A DNA stretch of 63,915 nt, counting the filler. It is 10 parts of 10 records of this genome, joined end to end, with 100 filler letters (N's around TTAATTAATTAA, not from the genome) between each part and the next. Parts side by side here need not be neighbours in the genome. Positions count along the whole stretch, not along the records: positions 38,073 to 51,282 come from SRR7504441_3693; 9 more parts are not named here. One strand, written 5' to 3'. Both the position numbers and the translations under genes were made by a program. The notes under the pieces are model-generated. The model had not been told where the DNA came from, ran no database searches, and worked only from the letters and a program-made list of their open reading frames with translations. This document shows positions 39,107-51,153 of this stretch, one piece after another (within the stretch, counting starts at the first letter, position 1; every line of letters starts with the position of its first letter).

Positions 39107-40076
39107 ATGTCGGACAGCAATCTCGGGCTGCCCAGTCGGATGGCGTTCTCTGCCGTAGCTGGGATGGTGTGTCGCTGCGCCGGGCTGCGGCTGATCCGAC
39201 CGGCAGGGCGCCGCCTGCTTCTGCCACCCGCTGGACGTGCTGCGGGTGCAGAAACAGGTTGACGCCCAGAAGCGACCGCTGCTCCAGCTGGCCCGCGACC
39301 TGGTCCGGAAGCACGGGCTCGGGGCCGGCCTCTACCCCGGGCTCACCGCGGCCTTCTTGCGCCAGTGGACCTACGGCAGCTGCCGGATGGGCATCTTTTC
39401 GTTTCTGCTCTCGCGGCACCGGAGGGAGCACGACGGAGCGCAGCCGGGGCTGGCCAGAAAGCTCGGGTTCGGAATGATAAGCGGCGGGATCGGCGCACTG
39501 GCCGGGACGCCATCGGAGGTGGCGCTGGTCCGGATGGGCGCGGATACAAAGCTGCCGCCGGCTGAGCAACGGCATTACAAGGGGCTGGTCGACTGCCTGA
39601 GCCGGATTTTTCGGGAGGAAGGGCTGGCCGGGATGTGGAATGGGGGGACGGTGACGGTTATGCGGGCGATGATCATGGGTTCTTGCCAGATGGGCGTGTA
39701 CGCACAGGCGAAGCAGGAGCTTGTAGGCCGGGGGCTAGACCCTGCCGGACTGCCAGTGATGCTCGTCTCAGCCACAGCGGCCAGCTTCGTGGCCAATGGG
39801 GCGTGCATGCCGTTCGATGTGGTCAAGAGTCGGCTGCAGAGTCAGAACCCTGTCAGTCCAGCATACAGTGGGATGCTTGACTGTGCGACCAAGAGTATTG
39901 CGGCTGAGGGCCCGCTCGTGCTGTGGAAGGGTGCGAAAGTGATACCGGCCCTGGTGTGACCCCGTGTGTGTTCAGGTTTTGTGCCCGCTTTTGTAAAGCT
40001 GGCGCCCTACACCATTCTCTCGCTCACCTTCCTCGAAAAGCTCACCCTCTTGGCAACTGGCTCCTCGGCATTGTGA
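39107..40076 (+). CDS. Mitochondrial 2-oxoglutarate/malate (dicarboxylate) carrier, SLC25 family
   Basis: Three carrier repeats: [33 protein letters not shown]. Also [12 protein letters not shown]. 2 introns. Confidence 0.9.
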
Positions 40077-40311: not shown

Positions 40312-42279
40312 ATGCTGGCTGGGGGTCGCTCGTGCTGCTCCGGTCGGGCCTGGCCCGTGTTCCACACCTGGCGCTTGTCGGTGGTGGCGGTCGTGCTCTT
40401 CCTGCTGATCCTCACCGCCCGGAACCTCGCGCCAGCCCGAGCCCCCCAACCGGCCTGCCCCACGCTCCCAGCGCTGCCCACTCGCCCACCCACCGACCAG
40501 CTGCGGCTACTCCTCCACCCCAACGCGGTCAGCCAGAGCCGCATAGACTCGGCCTTCGACCGCAAGCTGACCGAGCTGCACTGCCAAGCCACTCGATGCA
40601 CCCAGGGCGGATGCGACCGGCTGGCCCTCAGTCAAGAGGCCATGGAGGCGGGCGATGCAGCGTTCAAGAGCTTCGACATGGAGGCGGCCGTCGCGGCGTA
40701 CATGGTGGCCTTCACCCCAGACGGCAACCCGTCGGACCTCGGGCAGACGGAGCTGGAGGAGCACGCGCGACTGGTGAGCGCCTTCCACTTTGTAGAAGCC
40801 TTGTCGGCCGTGCAGCTCTTCTGGGCGGCGGATGTGCTCGCAGCTCGGCTGCTTGAGCTGGTCTCATGGTCCAGCCTGTACGAGCTCCGCGCCCATGGAG
40901 ATGAGCACTTCCGGCGCTACCCTCTGGCCTTGGAAAACATGCAGAGCTGTCTCCGACAAGTAGGCAGCCAATGCAGCGGAACGGGGATTCCGCCGCGGGG
41001 ACTGAGCCTAACTTTGGACGATCGATCGCTAGAGATCTGGCTGGCAAAGTCTGAGACGTGGGTCAAGGCCGTCCCAACAGACGTGGTTCTAGAGAGCCTA
41101 GAGGTGAAAACTGACGAATGTTCCACCGTGCCAGTCAAGAAGGTGGCTGGATCGATTTGCTTCAAACACGGCGATAAGAAGGAGACATGGCTTTTGCCAC
41201 ATGTGCTCCCGGAGCCGGGTGCGCCAGTGAGCCCTCTGTGCAACAGTTCAGAGCGCAAACTTAGTGTTAGGCGCCAGCCAACTTACCACGACCGCAAGTT
41301 GGAAATGTTCAAAAGTGAAATTGCCGACCGGTCCAAAGACACCTCCGCGACTATCTATGAGACGGTTTATAAACCTAGGCTATATTCAGCAGGCCCGGTG
41401 GGACTGAAGATCCATCAAGCGGATCAAGGCGAAGAGATCCAGCAGTTTTTCAAGTCTCAAGGGTACGTCGTAGTCGGGAATGGCATTCCACAAGGCTGGG
41501 ACACGATGATGCGTGACTACGTCCTACGGTTCCGGACCAAGATCTCCACGAAGGCTTGGAGTGTGGGTCCAAATTTTCGGCGGCACACCAACAAGTATAT
41601 AAAAAAGCCTGGCTTCCGAACCAATTTGGGACTATCTTTGGAGGAAGGAACGCCTTCGGGCAAGACAGTAGGGCAGGTATTTGCTGAAATGTTTAGGTCG
41701 GTGCCCGCGCTGCAAGAGCTGCTGCCGTCAGATGCACTGGTAACAGAACTTGGTGCATTCGTTGTGGAGCCTGGTGCGGAGCACCAGATCATCCACCAGG
41801 ACATCAATTATGTGAAAGGTCAGGCCAAGCCAAGGGCCCTTTTCGTTCAGCTCGGACCTGCCGAGGTCGGCCAGGGAAATTTGCGTGTCTGGCCAGGAAC
41901 GCACCCACAACCAAAGTTGAGGCCGATAGATGATGACAAAGCCGATCGAGAAACCAATCTAGAAAGTGTGAGGTATAACAGTGGCACCAAACGTGGGTTC
42001 CAGGGCATCGAGATTGCGCCAATTGAATCACGCAGTATCATAGTATACGATGGGTCCATGTTCCATCAGGGAACGAGGAATGTGCACCGGGAACCGCGTG
42101 TGATACTGTACCTATCCGTGGTCTTCGGTGAAAAGGCTCACAAGTTTGCTGATGCTTGGACAATCTCCCTCATTCCAGAGTACAAGAAAAAGAGATTGAC
42201 GGTTAAAGACCTTGTGAGATACCGGCTTCCTTCCGAAAGAGCATGGATGAGCATGGACGAGCACACTTGCAATGCCTGA
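40312..42279 (+). CDS. Type II membrane protein with C-terminal PhyH-like Fe(II)/2OG dioxygenase domain
   Basis: N-terminal TM LSVVAVVLFLLIL. Motifs PGAEHQIIHQD (HxD), GNLRVWPGTH, IIVYDGSMFHQGTRN...RVILY. Confidence 0.8.
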   Translation: MLAGGRSCCSGRAWPVFHTWRLSVVAVVLFLLILTARNLAPARAPQPACPTLPALPTRPPTDQLRLLLHPNAVSQSRIDSAFDRKLTELHCQATRCTQGGCDRLALSQEAMEAGDAAFKSFDMEAAVAAYMVAFTPDGNPSDLGQTELEEHARLVSAFHFVEALSAVQLFWAADVLAARLLELVSWSSLYELRAHGDEHFRRYPLALENMQSCLRQVGSQCSGTGIPPRGLSLTLDDRSLEIWLAKSETWVKAVPTDVVLESLEVKTDECSTVPVKKVAGSICFKHGDKKETWLLPHVLPEPGAPVSPLCNSSERKLSVRRQPTYHDRKLEMFKSEIADRSKDTSATIYETVYKPRLYSAGPVGLKIHQADQGEEIQQFFKSQGYVVVGNGIPQGWDTMMRDYVLRFRTKISTKAWSVGPNFRRHTNKYIKKPGFRTNLGLSLEEGTPSGKTVGQVFAEMFRSVPALQELLPSDALVTELGAFVVEPGAEHQIIHQDINYVKGQAKPRALFVQLGPAEVGQGNLRVWPGTHPQPKLRPIDDDKADRETNLESVRYNSGTKRGFQGIEIAPIESRSIIVYDGSMFHQGTRNVHREPRVILYLSVVFGEKAHKFADAWTISLIPEYKKKRLTVKDLVRYRLPSERAWMSMDEHTCNA

Positions 42280-42603: not shown

Positions 42604-45600
42604 CTACGCCTGATGGTGGGATGCGTCATATATCGGGCCAGTATTGCCCATCACCATTGAGCTCGGCATTGGTGCTTGATCATTCCGACAAGCGTTTGGA
42701 TCAGCGCTCTCGACCCATCCTGAACTCGGGCCCATTGGGTTGTCAACAACCAAAACCCTGTCTGCTGGGCCTCTATTCCGGCAGGCATTTGGGTCAGAGC
42801 TCTCTACCCAATCAGCGTTGGGGTCATTCCGACAAGCGTTTGGATCAGAACTCTCCACCCATAAAGCCTGCATTCAACCACTGCGTCAGCATGGAGACGG
42901 TCAAGGGCGCAGATACCTGACCAGTGGGACCCGAGTAATGACACTGTGCTGGGTCGGAGGATTCAAACCAATCTTGATAGTCAGCTGGCTGGATCCATGC
43001 ACTGAAGTAGTCATATGCCGGATTGTTCTGGGGCTGCAGTTGGCCGGATGCCTCGTTGACACTCATCGACATCAGATTCTGACCAAGTTGAGTCAGTTCT
43101 CTACCATTATAGCAGCCTGCAAGCGGCACCTGGGGTGGCGGTGGAGGTGGCATCCAGGCCTCGCTCATCATATCGCCGTAATCACCTGTGAACATAGAGC
43201 CAGTAGTGGCCAGGTTGTCCTGTGTCGGGATCGCATAGGTCCAGGAGCCATCAATCCCGCTGTTCTTCTCCTTGGCCAGCCGCTGCCTCGCATCGGTGGG
43301 GTAAGGCTCCATGTCTTCCATAGGATCGTGCCATACAGAATCAGGCTCGCGCTTGACGAAGTCATACACAAAAAACTTTGCGACTGACTGGATGAACAAA
43401 GTCTTGTGCAGCGGCACAAAGATCCAAACGATAAGACACACGATCTCAAGCCCACACAGACCAAAGACCACAGCCTGCGGCTCCGTATCCTTGTTCTGAT
43501 CCTCGAGTAGAACAGCCACAATCGCGATGTGCGCGACCACGAGCAAGACCATCGCTCTGCGGAGGTATGGCAAGACTTGCCAAGAGTAGCCGGATGCCTC
43601 TGCCAGCCTGCAGTTGCGAAGCAAAGAGTACTTCCAGCTCCAGTACAGAATCAGCAAGCTAATGAGAGTAAGTGGGTAGATGATCGGGCACAGAGGCCCA
43701 AAACACAGTCCGATGGCTACTGTCTTGACAAGCTTGGCGTAGGCGTCCGGAAGGTCGAACTCCATCGGCATGTATATTCTGTCGAGCTCGTACTGCACCA
43801 CCGCGCTGCGGGCTTGCCACCACTTCCAAATGGCGTCGTCGGGCGCAAACACAACCAGGAAGTTTGCAAATATTGCATTCGAGACCGTAAGCAAGATCCC
43901 AGTCTCGGCCAGGCCGCCGTCTGCATACCAATCGTCCTTATCGATTAAGATGAAGTAGATCAGGACTGTGTTGATCACGTAGGCAGCGGCCAGCTTAACA
44001 AACAGAGAGATGGCTGTATCCGTGGTTGTCTTCAGATGTTCAAACTTTTGCATTGAGGTCACGGCCCAGGAGATTGCAGTGTTGAGGGCCATGGTCACCA
44101 CTGATGCCAATGCTGTTATTCCCGTCTTGTAATTGTCGGAGTGGCCCTTGATGTTGTCCCTCTTCGCATACTCAATCAAAACAATCAGTGCAGCGGAAGC
44201 CAAAATCACCAACAGGCAAACCGAAAGCGAAGCCACGAGCCTGCAGAAGCGCTGGGCACGGGTCTTGGAAAAGTTCTCATAGATGATTGCCCGCGGCTCG
44301 GGAGCTCGTGACAACCGGATGGGATACTGGCCTTGAAACGGAGGAGGCTCGAATGTGACGTGCCCCGTATCCGTGGGCATGCAGTGCCTGTTGAAAAAGC
44401 TCCTCTGCTTGAACCACTTGACGAGAGTTTCGGCGGTCATTTGGTTCATGCATACGCACACAGCATATCTGTACCGGCCGGTCAGTCATTCAGCGACCGC
44501 ACAGCACTGGCTCACCCTGTGCATGTCTCCTCCTTGCATTCCTGCTCAGTGCAGCGTCTCTTCAGATCCTCCATCTTTTGCTCAACCTCGCTCAATTCGA
44601 TATTCTGCTTACCCAGCGCCTGACGCCCCATCAGCCAGGCCCTGTGCACGCCTCGCCTTCTCGGCCGACTTGCGCCGTTCGGATGTCGTGGGCACGCAGC
44701 ACCCATCGGCAGTGGGCTCGACCTCTGCAGGCCCCATATCCAGGAAGGTCTGCAGCGCGAGTCAGTCCAAACCGACAGCACGCGGCACCGTGATCTGCTC
44801 GGTACTAGCCTCGAGGAAGGTCTTCCGTCGCCACAGCTTGAGCAGCTCTTCAACGTCAGTGAGCACCACGCAGTTATCCTCTGCCAGTGCCTGGTAGTCG
44901 CCAGCATGTGCAGACCTTCGCAGCTCAGCCGCCTTCTCGTCAGCGCTTGCACCAGGGTATATGGCCTCCAAGCGCTTCATGTAAACCAACTGCAGCCTAA
45001 TCTTGAACTCCGGTAAAGCCATAATGTCCCTGATGTAATCCAGTACCTGCTGATGATTGGCCTCCGGTGGCAGTCCTGATAACATGATAGCGTAGTCACT
45101 AGCAGTCACGTTCAGCTCGTCCCAGAGCCGGGACATGCACAGATTGCTGGCGTGCAGCATCGTGATGTAGAGCAAGAAGCAAACCACAATGCAAAACTCG
45201 AAAAATGCCTGCCAGCTCAGCACCGGCGCACTAGTCACTTCTCCGAGCGACATCCAGTTGAAGTAGTTCGGGTCATCCAGCGCCTCGTGCTTCGCGTCGG
45301 TCCATATCGCGTAGAGCGATAGCAGCGAGACCAGCACTAACAGGTAAACGTACCCTAGCGCCGTGTGGAAGAACACTAACACGCCCACCCCCGCCCGCCT
45401 ACCGATCTCGAGCTGACTGGTGCCGCACACCGGGTAGAGCGCGTGCTGGCCTTTGCGCATTAAGTACCGCTGTCCCCGCTCCATTGCCAGCTTCTTGGAG
45501 AAGCCGGTGTCGGTGTGCTGCTCGAACTGGCTTGTCTCGATCAGCAGCCGTCGGCCAGCCTTATCCATCACGGGCAGGTACCCAAAGGACTCCCCGGCGT

Positions 45601-45995: not shown

Positions 45996-48468
45996 ATGGC
46001 ACGCGCTGCTGGCCTGCACCGGTGCCAGGAGGACACGGTGGCGGGCCTGCTGTCCTGCCTGGCCCCGGCCGGTGCGGCAGCCGTGCTGGCCGACCCTCCC
46101 GGGTTCGACCGGCCGCTCCAGACCGCTCAGCTGCTCGCACGGTTCTGCGGCGGCTACCGGGAGCCCGCCCGGGCGATGGCCCCGGAGCGGATGGGGCTTC
46201 GGCCGCCGCCAGCTCCGGTGCTCGACCAGATAGGTGCGGTGCTGGCCGATCTTGTCGCGCCGCACCTGGCCGCACTCGACCTGGAGGCTCGCGCGGCCTG
46301 GAGGGCCACCTGCAAGGCGTTCACCCGGGTGTCGGAGGGAGCGGCTATCGACTACGCTGGGGCCTCCGGGCTCGGGCCCGTGCTGTACGCGTTAGGCTCC
46401 TCCCCGGCCCAGGCAGCGATGGCCTGGGTGGCCCTCCCGCTCGCGGCGCCCGAGGTGCTCCCGGCAGGCTGTCGGCTATTTGACTAGGGTCTCAGCTATT
46501 CGAGGCGGCGGCGGCTGGACGTACGGACCGGGTGCGGGTGCTCGCGCTCTGCGGCGGTTCAGGCGCTGAGTTGATCGGCCTTGTGCTCCGTCTGGACTCT
46601 ATGGCAGGGCCTTTGCTCACGGTGAGCAGGCCTATGGGCTGCACTGATGCGCTCCGCAGGTGCAGGTGCGGGTGATGGACCACTGCGGCGCCTGGGCGGC
46701 CGGCCTGGAGGCGCTGCAGCGCTGCCTGGCTGCGGTATGCACAAGGGTTCGGCTCGAAGTCGAGTTTGAGCAAATCGACTTGCTGCTGCCTTCTGCCACT
46801 GAGCTGCTCACAACAGCCCTGGCCGGATGCCAGCTGTGCACACTGTGCTATGGCTTCTCCGAACTTCACGAGCGCGACCCCAATGCGACTGGCCGGTTTG
46901 TGTCTGCCATGCTGGCCGAGTGCAGTCGGCAGGGCGCTCGGTGTGTCGTGATCGATCCGCTCTCCATCCAGCACGACAAGCCCAGTTGGCTAGACCAGCA
47001 GGCGGCCGCGCATCATATGGCGCCAGCGGTGGCCATCCAAGCCAAGATCCAGCTGCCCCCGTCGCAGCTGGCTGGCTCCCCGCTGCAGCGTTGCTTTGAA
47101 CAGCTCGGGCTTAGAATAGGCCACGATGTCAAAACATTTTGCAACTTCTGGCTGCGGGCATACACCTGTGACCAGCAGACCTCCACCTGCGGGAACTTGG
47201 CGCCCAGGGGCGACTCCGGTCAGCAGTTGCGGGTGCTCGCAGTTGTTCCGGAGGCGGCTGTGCAGAGCTTTGGGGCGTTGTGTGTGGCAGCTGCAGGGAG
47301 TAGTGCTGTCCAGCTGCGAGGCGATCCCAAAGCGCCAAAGAGCTGGGAGCAAATGTGGCGGGTAGTGGCTGGTTGGCGGGCCACTGGGGGGATTCTAGTG
47401 GCCGAGCAAGTGCAGTTGCCGGACTTGCTGCTTGGCTGTACCAGCGAGCGAGCCTTGCAAGCCTGCGAGTCGCTTAGCTCACCCGATCTAATGGCAGTGC
47501 TCATCCATCCAAGCAAGCCAAGTAAACGCCTGCTCGAGGCCTTGGCAACGATACGACCGTTACGGCAGCTATTGGTGCTGGGTGGGGATAGTCCTGGCAT
47601 CGAGCAGCTGCCAGTGCCACTCCGGAGATCCTCGGTTTGGTTTGCGAGAGCAGAGTGCGAGCTGCAGGCGGCACTCAGTCAGAACCATGTTACAGTGAGC
47701 CACCACCACATCCAGTGCAACCACACTGAGCGGCAGACTACACTGGTCGCCAGCTGCAAGCAGGCGTGCCAGCGGATTAGCTGTGCGCTACACCCAGGGC
47801 TCCTGTCACTATCCAAGAAGGCTGCTTCCGTTGCATCCTCGCCCAGCTGGTCGTGGGCAGACTCAGAGAGGACAGCGGCTGTGCGGCGTTTATTGGAGCT
47901 ACACAAGCGGGTAGTCGTATTCTGGCTTCTCCCGCAGAGTGTCACAGCGATTGAGCACTGCCTCGACCCAAGCATGGCCGAACTGCATAAAGTGGACAGG
48001 TTTCGAGACACACAGCGGAGGAGGGCAGATACAGGGCAGAGGACGTCGCTCGCCCATTTTCAGGCGTGGAGCAGGCGTGATCTTGAGAATTGCACACACA
48101 CCAAAGACGGAGCTCCTATATGCTACAAGTTCAACTACATGGATTGTGATGGTGCTTGCGACAGGGCACATCGGTGCGATAGTGTCCAATGCGGTGACAA
48201 AGCAGCGCATCACCCTAGGCGAAGCTGTCCATCTCTGACGGTTAGTGACGCTTCCAGCGAGCGGCCGCAGCTGTGGCTGTTTGCGTTGCATGCGTGTGAA
48301 CGAGAGGTGTGGCTGCCACAGGGCGTGTATAGTGCAGTTTTCTTCGACCTCGATTTAGTTGCACAGACACCCGAGATGAAAGGTCTATATCGAGAAGCCT
48401 TGGCACGGCTCGTCAATCTGAGGGCAGAGCCACACGTTACGCTAAACGTCTATAGACTCGCGTCCTAA
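45996..48468 (+). CDS. Degenerate SNF2-like helicase-fold protein with F-box-like N-terminus and CCCH/CCHC zinc finger
   Basis: Eroded SNF2 motifs: GSPLQR, RVLAVVP, GGILVAE, PDLMAVLIHP, RVVVFW, SAVFFDLD, VTLNVYRLAS. Zinc finger PICYKFNYMDCDGACDRAHRCDSVQCGDKAAHHPRRSCP. Confidence 0.5.
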
Positions 48469-48814
48469 TGCACAATGTCATAATTATGCATTGACATTGA
48501 CAGTTGTGCCATTACTGTATAATAGTTAGGTACCACTGCTGCGTGCATGCCATACTGTAGAATGCTCATCAAGTAGCATGCATACAATCATGTCCATTAA
48601 TTTTTTATGTATTGATCATGAATATTTAATCATTGCTAATAGTATTGTACAACGATGTCGACTCACTAATGTTGTCGACTCACTTAGACTCACTTTAGGT
48701 ACACTTTAGGAGTGTTCTTGCTATGTTCTTGCTATGCGTACAGTCGAGTTCATGCTAGACTCGCTGAGGCTGAGTGCCGTGTAAAGCTATAGTAAAGCTA
48801 GACTCAGGCAACGC

Positions 48815-51153
48815 TCAGTCCAAGTATGCAGCTCGCATCTGCCAAAGAGCCATAACACCCCAGTGTCCGTTGGTATTGTTGCTCCTCTTGATCGTGGTCA
48901 GGTTGCTGTCCAGGTGAATCAGCGGCGCCTCTAAAAAGTCGGTATTGTTTGCATCGGCCCAGACACACGGTGGAATCCCGACGAGATATCCAGCCTCGTC
49001 CATCGGACTGTCACCTGTGCCATACACTGCCTGGTTCCTGCAGATCAACTGGTTGCGATCATTGTCCCAAAGCTCAAGCGACATGCAAGAAGGCGCATGA
49101 CAGTGGGCCGCTGCATACATGAGCTTGAACCAGCCATTGTGCTTCTGGGCGATCCTTGTAGGATCGATGCACGCCCCTGTGCTCACTTGGGCCATGCAGC
49201 CGGACGAGAGCATGTCTCGGCCCTTGAACTTGGACGCAATCTGGTGCACGCAGAGCTCCGGGTCGGTCTTAGGGTTGAGACAATCAGCGGTGGATTTCGG
49301 AACATCGTATTCATTGTTGATCGCCTCAGTCGACCACCAGACCCGGTAAAGATTGGATTGGTTCTTGAACTCCTCAAAGTAAAATCGGTACCGGAGCTGC
49401 CACGAGTCAACTGCCTCAGGCACCTGCTGGTCGGCGTCCAGAAGGAGCGAACCTCCTCCACAGCAGTGCAGGCCGCCCTGGCACAAGGAAAGTAAGTCTC
49501 CAGCTGGCAGGCAGGCGCACACACCTCATACGCACTGATGTTGCAGATTCCGTTGTTCGTGCTGAGCAACTGACTTGTCGGCTCCGGCGCACACACGCCT
49601 CGGTTGAACGGCCCACCACCGATTGTGCCTCCCAGCGAGCTGGCGTCCCGACACATGCAAAGCAGCTCACTGGAGCATTGCGCCTCCGACTCTGAATTGT
49701 TGTTGAAGACCACGTCGCACCTATCCGAAGGAGGAAGGTACGAGCAACCAGCCGGCATTTTGGCCGAGGAGCTGTTCAAGAGCTGGATGGTGGCGTTGCC
49801 ACAGACCTGGCGTGCGGCTGCTAGGCACTCTTGCAGAGTGTTGACCCTGCTTGGGACCGAAGTGGCTCCGATCACGACAGCGGGGCACGACTCCGATTGG
49901 ACGCTGGTGTACCGGTCAACAATCTTCACTTTCCTTGTGGTGCACGGGCACTCGAGAATTCCGGAGTAGTCGGCACCCGGAGGCGCCAGTGAGCGGCGCG
50001 GCAGCAGAGACGCGATGTGTCCAGGGGTTTGCTCTCCGGTGAGCCGCTTGTTGGTGTTGATGATCATAGGCATGTTCACAAAGGCGACCGGGCTGCGCAG
50101 CAGCTGGGCGTAGCCTGCGGCATACCCATGGAAGGACTTCCTGTGCTCATTGCCGTTGCCCTCCGAAAACACCTGGACTGTTGGGACCCTTACTCCAGGT
50201 GTAAACGGCTGCTTGTACCACACGTTGCCGTCGCTCCAAGTGAGTACGGAGCATGTCGGCGCCCCCTCGGCCGGCGAGGTGGAGAATTTACCAGTGACGT
50301 TCAGCCCAGCGTCATCGTGGGCTCGCAAGGTAGCTCCACCTTGTGGAGCGTCGGGACTCGGCGGTGAGATCGTGCCATACCCTTGGTGCCAGCCTCGGCT
50401 CCCGACGCAGCTCGCGGTGAAGTTGGTCGCATTGCTGCCCTCCGCGTGGCTCCACACCGTGCGGCCCGCCAGCTGGATCTTCTGATAAGCGGACTTGGGT
50501 GCACCGCACACCGGGCAGACCCAGCTCGCGGGCAGCTGCTCAAACGGCACCCCGTTCCCATCCTTGTGCTGGTCGTACACGTGATTGCAGTGCGAGCACT
50601 GGTACTCGCCCTCGTTCGGGCCCGGCCGGTCAGCGCTAATGTTGACGGAGATCCCGTTGACTGGATTCAGCCAGAGGCCCCGTATGTCGCACATTCGGTC
50701 GGTCTGCGCGTCGGCCTGTGCCGGGCGCCAGCCGGGGAGCCGGCCGCCGTGCGTTCCTCGCAGGCCGGCGCCTTGGACTGGAACAACGTCCTTTCCGTGC
50801 ATGAAGCCGGAGAAGTGATGATTGTATTGCTCGTAGCATGGGATCGAGTGGAAGCTGCCGTTGGCGGAACGCCGGACGATGTCGACCTCGTACCCGGTGA
50901 TCGCCATTACCTTGCCGTCGAACCGATCCACTATCGCCTGTGGGAGCGGCGAGCTTTGCTGGGCCCACCACACCTCAGAGTAGCGCGAGGTGGTCAGCGG
51001 GCCGTTCAGCTCAAAGTACTCGCCCTGGAACTCCGCCTGACGGCCGGGCCGGGCCGGGTTGGCCACGGTGTACTCGCTGTTCATGTTGGGCGCCGCGCCC
51101 ACCCCGGCGGCCAGGATGGCCAGAGCCAAGAAAGGACATTGCCTGAAGGACAT
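48815..51153 (-). CDS. Secreted SURNod19-like / Cu-monooxygenase-like protein with inserted rubredoxin domain
   Basis: Signal peptide MSFRQCPFLALAILAAGVGA. Motifs MAITGYEVDIV...EQYNHHF; YAAAHCHAP...LICRNQAVYG...DEAGYLVGIPPC...HWGVMALW. Rubredoxin YQCSHCNHVYD...PFEQLPASWVCPVCGAPKSAY. One 47-nt intron near 49479-49525. Confidence 0.8.

Follow-up and report, generated by a model that had tools for sequence, protein, structure and literature searches.

The DNA analyzed here (the window; 63,915 nucleotides, filler included) is made up of ten contigs with nine N44-TTAATTAATTAA-N44 linkers between them at positions 6584-59969; since these linkers join separate contigs, two features with a linker between them are not genomic neighbors. 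A 13.2-kb contig (38073-51282) carries on its minus strand a two-exon gene of the SURNod19 family, whose start codon lies 130 nt from the contig end. The product has an architecture that is real, conserved, and apparently undescribed: a β-barrel module interrupts the N-terminal domain of the enzyme core, and a complete rubredoxin domain interrupts a loop of this barrel. A sequence-only reading had placed a secreted, putative copper monooxygenase with its own rubredoxin at 48815..51153. These coordinates proved exact, and a 47-nt intron that had gone unmentioned is added to them here.

The features of the gene are as follows. CuH and CuM refer to the two copper sites of peptidylglycine α-hydroxylating monooxygenase (PHM) and dopamine β-hydroxylase (DBH), with which the core is compared below.

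48815..51153 (minus strand), whole gene from start to stop codon, two exons, ~763 aa; length and ends agree with the full-length ortholog P0259 (761 aa)
49525..51153 (minus strand), exon 1 (543 aa, P0001), from translation
51091..51153 (minus strand), signal-peptide-like N-terminus, residues 1 to ~21, from the sequence and the conserved mature start right after it in all homologs; judged by a hydrophobicity proxy only
50704..51090 (minus strand), N-terminal (CuH-type) β-sandwich, first part, with Y110-N111-H112-H113 (HH at 50815-50820); HH nearly invariant, fold taken from a homolog model
50608..50703 (minus strand), avidin-type β-barrel, first part, residues 151-182, from the exon-1 model; structural matches at Z 8.1-8.3 to streptavidin/avidin-like proteins and 9.2 to a designed barrel
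50470..50607 (minus strand), rubredoxin domain in a barrel loop, residues 183-228, with Cys186, Cys189, Cys214, and Cys217; from Pfam, phmmer, and model superposition
50425..50469 (minus strand), linker after the rubredoxin, residues 229-243, with 'VWSH', typical of the clade; modelled with low confidence at 229-239 (pLDDT below 50)
50194..50424 (minus strand), avidin-type β-barrel, second part, residues 244-320, from the exon-1 model
49924..50193 (minus strand), N-terminal domain, second part, EGNGNEHRKSFHGY...ECPCT, with the candidates for a third CuH histidine, H337 (50143-50145) and H343 (50125-50127); from the alignment
49525..49923 (minus strand), Cys-rich middle region, residues 411-543, without the DOMON-like segment of relatives (alignment gap in P0001)
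49478..49524 (minus strand), intron, 47 nt, GT..AG, frame-shifting; P0003 and P0259 are continuous across the junction
48818..49477 (minus strand), exon 2 (220 aa, P0002), C-terminal CuM-type domain, with the SURNod19 Pfam match at residues 95-214; from translation and Pfam
49097..49105 (minus strand), H-C-H (AHCH), candidate CuM histidines, family-invariant; from sequence and alignment
48851..48865 (minus strand), H-W-G-V-M, whose Met is the CuM candidate; invariant at His, Gly, and Met; from sequence and alignment

The stop codon is at 48817..48815 (minus strand). At the splice junction the product reads ...NISAYE followed by GGLHCCGGGS..., and the splice is confirmed by two homologs that read across this point without interruption, P0003 ('NISAYEGGLHCCGGGS') and the 761-aa transcriptome protein P0259 ('NISAYEGGLRCC'). 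The spliced product contains 31 cysteines and 13 N-x-S/T sequons. In an alignment of 58 family sequences, the hydrophobic N-terminus MSFRQCPFLALAILAAGVGAAP directly precedes the family-conserved mature start 'NMN..Y.(I/V)ANP', which indicates that the start codon assignment is sound. The signal peptide of the sequence-only reading is likewise retained, on the basis of the hydrophobic segment and the conserved mature start that follows it in all homologs. Signal peptides were judged throughout by a hydrophobicity proxy; its crude pass count, 46 of 147 M-started sequences, includes many fragments and is not used as a rate. Plastid targeting of the product was considered and is unlikely, since the conserved mature start follows the signal peptide without the spacer that a transit peptide would need.

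Family, fold, and ligand pattern of the enzyme core

The C-terminal domain belongs to the SURNod19 family, as had been read from the sequence. The profile PF07712 matches exon 2 with 43.3 bits (cutoff 25) over profile positions 262-372 of 377, with the N-terminal half of the profile unmatched, and the ortholog P0259 with 47.9 bits over positions 180-373. All three motifs picked out earlier, YNHHF, AHCH, and HWGVM, are present. A word-indexed search recovered 106 family proteins at E <= 1e-3 from marine eukaryote transcriptomes and metagenomes, mostly of 600-860 aa. In the 58-sequence alignment they follow a common plan: a signal peptide, a YNHH domain, a short loop, and the segment 'Q.FSEGNGNEHR.S(Y/F)(K/H)GY...ECPCT', then a Cys-rich middle region, which in many members contains a DOMON-like segment, and a domain with HCHAP and H.GVM. 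The DOMON assignment in relatives stays under the Pfam cutoff (25.6 vs 32.7 bits in P0032; E <= 0.1 in 4 of 45 members). For the gene product no DOMON Pfam match was found, and the alignment has a gap over the segment in question. A search of the ESM Atlas gave one match, to a haptophyte cluster labelled SURNod19, with a score of 0.77, which is under the level counted as more than a lead.

The fold of the core was obtained on P0005, a 750-aa homolog that has the barrel module and no rubredoxin and is 40% identical to exon 1 over 98% of exon 1 (BLASTP). Its AF2 model (pLDDT 83.6, pTM 0.81) found PHM structures as its best Foldseek matches, at E 1.9e-4 and up. Superposition with VIA-align 2 gave Z scores of 12.6-16.4 for 25 PHM entries, 8.2 for human DBH, and 6.2-7.0 for PNGase F-type proteins. 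With the best PHM entry, 6ala_A, 246 of 297 residues aligned with an rmsd (root-mean-square deviation) of 3.5 Å, and the aligned part (model residues 41-750) includes both domains.

In DBH, according to the excerpted text of PMC4846438, CuH is bound by His262, His263, and His333 and CuM by His412, His414, and Met487; CuH serves electron transfer, and the two electrons come from two ascorbates. The HH, HxH, and Met positions are invariant or nearly so in the SURNod19 branch. In an alignment of 45 sequences (P0005 numbering), H656, H658, H736, and M740 are invariant and Y108-N109-H110-H111 is at least 90% conserved. In the gene product, HxH and Met follow DBH in motif and order only, with the methionine ~70-85 residues after HxH. 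The methionine stands 10 residues ahead of the last aligned residue in both proteins (740/750 in the P0005 model, 487/497 in DBH). The HH pair is also present, and of two candidate positions for the third histidine, which in PHM/DBH-type enzymes follows HH by ~64-70 residues, both are occupied by histidine. These two positions lie six residues apart (NE-H-R and S(Y/F)-H-GY), and 95 of 99 sequences with the EGNGNE motif have at least one of them: the first only in 42, the second only in 35, both in 18 (the gene product included), and neither in 4. This alternation in the alignment suggests that the ligand could be supplied from either position. Judged on the homolog model, the family has the fold and the ligand pattern of PHM/DBH. 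Membership in their sequence family is not claimed, because sequence methods do not connect them.

The nested rubredoxin and its relatives

The complete rubredoxin that had been placed at ~50478-50607 maps to ~50470-50607, and Pfam, phmmer, the four cysteines, and the modelled fold agree on it. The Pfam family Rubredoxin (PF00301) matches residues 184-222 with 35.7 bits (cutoff 23, E 8.8e-9), and phmmer matches rubredoxins of the PDB at E 3e-9. Weak zinc-ribbon Pfam matches overlap the same region, all under their cutoffs. Both knuckles are present (C186-x-x-C189 and C214-P-V-C217-G), and the core residues Y, F, LP, W, K, and Y are retained. In the AF2 model of exon 1 (pLDDT 82.2, pTM 0.60), the rubredoxin blocks reach pLDDT 84-93 and superpose on solved rubredoxins with TM 0.66-0.79 and rmsd 1.9-2.7 Å; with 1rb9_A, VIA-align 2 gave Z 6.1, rmsd 1.7 Å, and 47% identity over 45 of 52 residues. 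Between 5 and 15 residues past the rubredoxin stands a W-x-H motif (here W-S-H, ~50437-50445, minus strand), kept by 4 of 4 nested proteins and by 73 of the 133 clade members scanned, which could be a relay or docking element.

The rubredoxin lies inside a module of ~115 aa (CDIRGLWLNP...CSVLTWSDGNVWYK), which in turn lies inside the N-terminal domain in the 58-sequence alignment. The exon-1 model places it between barrel strands 168-174 and 244-250. The order of nesting proposed in the sequence-only reading, rubredoxin within β module within enzyme, is thus borne out by alignment, Pfam, and model together. In fold class, the module is modelled as an avidin/streptavidin-type barrel with eight strands. 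Its matches in the exon-1 model are to a streptavidin variant (6qsy_A; Z 8.3, rmsd 3.0 Å, 91 of 119 residues aligned, 18% identity), a chicken biotin-binding protein (2c1q_A; Z 8.2, 93 of 123 residues, 22% identical), zebavidin (Z 8.2), and agroavidin (Z 8.1), and to a designed barrel at Z 9.2; the barrel of the P0005 model gives Z 6.9-7.7 with avidin-type proteins. Overall these are Z 7-9 over 85-98 aligned residues, a range that the aligner calls a common arrangement and in which designed and unrelated barrels score alike. In a wide structural search with the exon-1 model, barrel and rubredoxin were the only parts represented among the 50 matches listed, with no PHM entry, so the search is uninformative on the fold of the N-terminal domain.

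Among family members, the module was scored by the spacing from HH to EGNGNE. Of the 94 members with both flanking motifs, 16 have a loop of 161-221 residues after YNHH, and in the other 78 this loop measures at most 80. A rubredoxin at the same spot within the module occurs only in P0001, P0004/P0259, P0118, and the N-truncated P0003, so that three other sequences share the layout. A quick maximum-likelihood tree unites P0001 and P0259 in a clade (SH-aLRT 100), amid both module-bearing and module-less members; P0004, which falls into one 90% cluster with P0259, was omitted. The rubredoxin is 63-67% identical to those of the three relatives with the same nesting (29/46, 31/46, and 27/43 residues), on par with the N-terminal domain (69/127) and above the linker behind the rubredoxin (4/11). 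In another relative, P0013 (634 aa), an avidin-type barrel is found in the middle region and not in the N-terminal domain, so the barrel has changed its place among family members.

The insert is in frame and free of stops. P0003 is 67% identical to the gene product, and P0259, a full-length 761-aa EukProt protein from a transcriptome assembled with Trinity, is 53% identical over the region and carries the rubredoxin in the same place. Since three other sequences share the layout and one of them is a full-length transcriptome protein, the insert is not removed by splicing and is no artifact of assembly, two of the outcomes that would have undone the earlier proposal. Twenty public runs matched the locus, with shares of at most 0.15, and four were examined. 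A DNA contig of 413 nt (50571-50983) with 0 differences starts in the N-terminal domain, continues through the first part of the barrel, and ends 11 codons into the rubredoxin. Contigs from RNA libraries match 50777-51037 (1 difference) and 48858-49119 (2 differences); a further one at 48700-49365, with 8 other letters and 12 gaps, is probably from another strain.

The rubredoxin belongs to a recognizable clade. A full HMMER search with the barrel plus rubredoxin returned 949 proteins at E <= 1e-3 and 107 at E <= 1e-10, nearly all by way of the rubredoxin. The nearest of these make up the clade, with the pattern C.(V/I)C.H(V/I)Y(D/N)...DG.G..F(E/D).LP(D/A).W.CPVCG.PKSA(Y/F), often with W.H behind it (73/133), and the members read or scanned begin with signal-peptide-like segments. 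Of 53 proteins scanned, 15 have a non-rubredoxin partner family at E <= 1e-5. Thirteen of the partners are redox-related or cofactor-binding (Cyt-b5, b561, VDE, BBE, FAD_oxidored, Flavin_Reduct twice, Glu_synthase twice, AKR, CREG twice, and Pyrid_ox_like), and two, GH20 and CIA30, are neither. Partners beyond those described below include CREG (P0163, P0221), BBE (P0167), aldo-keto reductase (P0183), and CIA30 (P0213).

The clade is joined to SURNod19-type cores in three layouts. In the first, the rubredoxin is nested in the barrel (P0001, P0003, P0118, P0004/P0259). In the second, the middle region holds two tandem rubredoxins (P0040; one member of its 90% cluster is labelled Picomonas judraskeda). 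In the third, a rubredoxin lies N-terminal to a SURNod19-like segment that scores 21.4 bits, under the cutoff of 25 (P0198). Repeated independent fusion of this kind is a classic sign of a functional link. A pattern scan of metagenome loci gave 80 matches to generic rubredoxin patterns, of which L002 and L003 were read, and no further locus with barrel plus rubredoxin; a first scan of metagenome loci had found no relative.

Several other members of the clade are of interest in their own right. P0188 (310 aa) is made up of a signal or anchor segment, a sequon-flanked rubredoxin, and a eukaryotic cytochrome b561 (82.7 bits). In P0124 (608 aa), a signal peptide is followed by three rubredoxins, a multi-pass membrane region (weak b561 match, 13.9 bits), and a cytochrome b5 (66.4 bits). 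By analogy with DOMON-b561 proteins, both look like transmembrane electron conduits that end in rubredoxin. P0137/P0269 combine a signal peptide, a lipocalin enzyme of the violaxanthin de-epoxidase (VDE) type (184.7 bits), and two C-terminal rubredoxins; VDE is a lumenal enzyme that uses ascorbate. In P0106 and P0110-P0113, a signal peptide is followed by a 'CPFG' domain of ~350 aa without a Pfam match and a C-terminal rubredoxin. A Cys-Pro-Phe motif close to the mature N-terminus is followed in this domain by 'LCYWAWQ.LPPP' and 'WPMAV.IWK', and the family may represent a further secreted redox enzyme. P0116, L002 83-871 (plus strand), and L003 45-809 (plus strand) are secreted proteins in which only a signal peptide and a Pro/Thr-rich linker accompany four rubredoxins in tandem, with no enzyme. 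In P0114, the rubredoxin stands directly behind the signal peptide of a cathepsin-type protease with an I29 propeptide (185.9 bits), and P0127 is a GH20 hexosaminidase-like protein with two rubredoxins; an electron relay does not explain either fusion.

The contig around the gene holds ordinary eukaryotic genes. Five neighboring open reading frames were scanned, two of them without a Pfam match. They include a mitochondrial carrier at 39237-39959 (plus strand; 126.8 bits), a weak PhyH-like dioxygenase match at 40312-42279 (plus strand; 22.3 bits vs a cutoff of 22), an anoctamin/RSN1_7TM-like membrane protein just under the cutoffs at 42845-44461 (minus strand), and a 602-aa frame without a Pfam match at 46660-48468 (plus strand). 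Because the source is a eukaryote, these neighbors say little about the gene.

Proposed electron entry through the rubredoxin

The best reading of the protein is a PHM-like copper oxygenase in which the rubredoxin, supplied by an external donor, would serve as an integral entry port for single electrons. The gene product would be a soluble glycoprotein of the secretory pathway, from a large protist branch of the SURNod19 family, and its core a PHM/DBH-like oxygenase of two domains and two coppers. In the N-terminal domain, an electron-transfer copper would be held by H112, H113, and a third histidine, H337 and/or H343. In the C-terminal domain, an oxygen-activating copper would be held by H-C-H and the methionine of HWGVM. 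The rubredoxin, nested in the barrel of the electron-transfer domain, would bind iron through its four cysteines and pass single electrons to the nearby copper, and so take the role that soluble ascorbate has in PHM and DBH. What the analysis observed is the gene structure, the domains and their nesting, their conservation, and, on a homolog, the fold; that copper and iron are bound, which way and with which partner electrons flow, and that the chemistry is of an oxygenase is what we infer. The sequence-only reading had gone further and proposed a possibly self-sufficient oxygenase. This part is not retained: the protein contains neither a reductase domain nor one for NAD(P)H or flavin, and its rubredoxin would have to be reduced from outside. 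A membrane conduit such as the rubredoxin-b561 or rubredoxin-transmembrane-b5 fusions in related marine eukaryote data would be a candidate donor.

PHM and DBH, like VDE, are lumenal enzymes that draw their electrons from ascorbate, and in animals b561 moves reducing power over the granule membrane. The recurrent fusions, these ascorbate-using lumenal enzymes, their b561 supply, and the location of the insert in the domain of the electron-accepting copper jointly make an entry port the best reading. We nonetheless hold the relay to be evenly poised, at about one half, because the protease and glycosidase fusions allow a wider or different role for the module.

Several observations weigh against an electron entry port on a copper oxygenase. 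The clade is also attached to hydrolases that need no electrons, the cathepsin-type Peptidase_C1 (P0114) and GH20 (P0127), and the candidate b561-type donors come from data on related marine eukaryotes and not from this organism. Classical rubredoxins have glycine after the first CxxC, and the nested one has asparagine. The exon-1 model has a pTM of 0.60, which leaves its domain packing unsure, and the PHM fold was seen on the rubredoxin-less homolog P0005 and not on the full chain of the gene product. No Pfam match to Cu2_monooxygen (PF01082, PF03712) was found at E up to 1 for the gene product or up to 0.1 for relatives, and a profile of 45 family sequences run against the PDB found no PHM or DBH at E <= 10, with only chance-level matches at ~0.9. 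The earlier assignment to the PHM/DBH type thus stands in its fold (on the homolog model) and in its conserved HH/HxH/Met pattern, and falls short in the Cu2_monooxygen match. The third CuH histidine is ambiguous, with neither candidate present in 4 of 99 members. RNA at the locus is thin, and in the four public runs no contig spans the intron or the whole rubredoxin. Finally, the function of Nod19-domain proteins was described as unknown in the excerpted text of a 2022 paper (PMC9632046).

Some of these observations would fit a tentative alternative, in which the rubredoxin-like insert is a structural or docking Cys4 knuckle, with zinc or iron and no electron feed, that stabilizes the barrel loop or binds a partner or receptor in the secretory pathway. 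The occurrence of the same clade on non-redox lumenal hydrolases (Peptidase_C1 with the I29 propeptide, GH20) and in enzyme-free secreted arrays of four rubredoxins (P0116, L002, L003) points this way, as does asparagine in place of the usual glycine past the first CxxC. The weak zinc-ribbon matches that overlap the domain would also agree with it; every zinc-ribbon family, however, is under its cutoff, whereas Rubredoxin is over its own. A docking knuckle is further opposed by the intact aromatic and proline core of a rubredoxin (Y, F, LP, W, CPxCG, K, Y) and by the 13 of 15 partner-bearing clade proteins, among the 53 scanned, that are redox-related or cofactor-binding. We regard it as possible and rather unlikely.

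It is improbable that the core is instead a binding protein or hydrolase of the PHM/PNGase F fold, with its conserved His and Met put to another use and the rubredoxin either sensing redox state or metals or helping to handle iron or copper. PNGase F-type proteins do share the fold of the P0005 model at Z 6.2-7.0, neither Pfam nor the profile run against the PDB ties the family by sequence to Cu2_monooxygen families, and no biochemical function is assigned to SURNod19 in the excerpts of PMC9632046 and PMC3882225. The Z scores for PHM (12.6-16.4), however, are about double those for PNGase, and HH, HxH, and Met come in the order of DBH residues 262/263/333 and 412/414/487 and with similar spacing. 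In addition, bean Nod19 is a target of miR398b and copper-responsive like the Cu/Zn superoxide dismutase CSD1 (PMC3882225, excerpted text). An artifact, whether a retained intron, an error of the gene model, or a chimeric metagenome assembly, is very improbable: the contig is metagenome-derived, no read-level contig in four runs spans the whole insert, and the best-matching DNA run may be the same source as the contig, but the insert is in frame and stop-free, is 63-67% conserved at identical placement in three other sequences, is present in the full-length transcriptome-derived P0259, and is joined through its first 11 codons to N-terminal domain and barrel by the 413-nt DNA contig with 0 differences.

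With the insert as an electron entry port, a wider proposal can be made, which as a whole we consider doubtful. Some marine protists may have an extracytosolic rubredoxin electron supply, in which b561/b5-rubredoxin membrane proteins would export cytosolic reducing power. The rubredoxins built into enzymes (PHM-like, VDE-like, BBE-like, and others) and the free four-rubredoxin chains would receive and pass these electrons. Soluble ascorbate would thereby be replaced or supplemented, and SURNod19 would be a copper oxygenase, its first biochemical role.

Rubredoxins are regarded as cytosolic or plastid carriers. If the proposal is true, the signal-peptide rubredoxin clade is an unrecognized power supply for lumenal or extracellular oxidative chemistry, and the covalent Fe-to-Cu arrangement is a natural model of how electrons arrive at the CuH of PHM/DBH-type enzymes. 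A PHM-like two-copper core with conserved ligand positions also offers a testable activity for SURNod19. In the excerpted texts of PMC3882225 and PMC9632046, SURNod19/MtN19 proteins of plants, fungi, and bacteria are stress- and copper-responsive and without known activity. For bean Nod19, a miR398b target that follows copper supply, the specific function is said in the excerpt still to be elucidated (PMC3882225).

As the sequence-only reading had supposed, the literature searches found no description of this architecture. A search with subscription journals outside its scope found no paper linking Nod19 to PHM. Judged by title, none treats Nod19 as a copper monooxygenase, the nearest being plant expression studies, and none is relevant to a rubredoxin-b561 fusion or to rubredoxin with VDE. 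For secreted eukaryotic rubredoxin fusions, no paper was found among titles and abstract beginnings.

Comparison with known systems

The closest comparison is with PHM, DBH, and tyramine β-monooxygenase, ascorbate-dependent monooxygenases with type II copper; noradrenaline and amidated peptide hormones are products of such enzymes. The core of two β-sandwiches is common to them (Z 16.4 with PHM and 8.2 with DBH on the homolog model), as is the order of the candidate ligands, with HH...H (its third histidine ambiguous here) in domain one and HxH...M in domain two, and all are disulfide-rich glycoproteins of the secretory pathway. PHM and DBH use two external electrons per turnover (PMC4846438, excerpted text), and by analogy the gene product would do the same. 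Unlike them, the gene product has no match to their sequence family, its N-terminal domain is split by barrel and rubredoxin, a Cys-rich middle region parts the two domains, and an extra invariant histidine stands four residues before the methionine. Whereas PHM and DBH draw on soluble ascorbate, the electron source of the gene product would be a covalent Fe(Cys)4 center.

With the SURNod19/MtN19 proteins of plants, fungi, and bacteria (PF07712), the gene product shares the C-terminal profile match and motifs of the YNHH, HCHAP, and GVM type. The plant proteins are ~400 aa long (404 aa for bean Nod19 in the excerpt of PMC3882225) compared with ~760 aa here. In contrast to the plant proteins, the protist branch adds the barrel, the rubredoxin, and the Cys-rich middle region, which is DOMON-like in many relatives and not in the gene product. 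The barrel itself resembles avidin and streptavidin in its eight up-and-down strands and length of ~115 residues. It differs in being an enzyme insert that hosts a rubredoxin in a loop, and designed barrels score as high in the comparison.

AlkB is a di-iron enzyme of the bacterial cytoplasmic membrane, with its rubredoxin on the cytosolic side. AlkB with a fused rubredoxin (PDB 8f6t; 8f6t_A is among the PDB rubredoxins matched by phmmer) and the AlkG/AlkT system provide a precedent for a rubredoxin covalently joined to an oxygenase and served by a separate reductase; PMC8918992 is a review. The gene product differs from it as a soluble eukaryotic protein of the copper type with a signal peptide, in which the rubredoxin is buried two levels deep.

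The cytochrome domain of cellobiose dehydrogenase (CDH) feeds the copper of LPMO. DOMON-b561 proteins (CYBDOM; 10.1101/2023.10.10.561639) and the DOMON domain of DBH are similar to the arrangement proposed here in that an extracytosolic carrier domain is fed by b561 over a membrane and serves an acceptor with copper or iron. The likeness extends to the family itself, in which many relatives contain a DOMON-like segment, and to P0188, in which rubredoxin and b561 are laid out as in DOMON-b561. Unlike the heme relays of CYBDOM and CDH, the carrier here would be an Fe(Cys)4 rubredoxin and not heme b.

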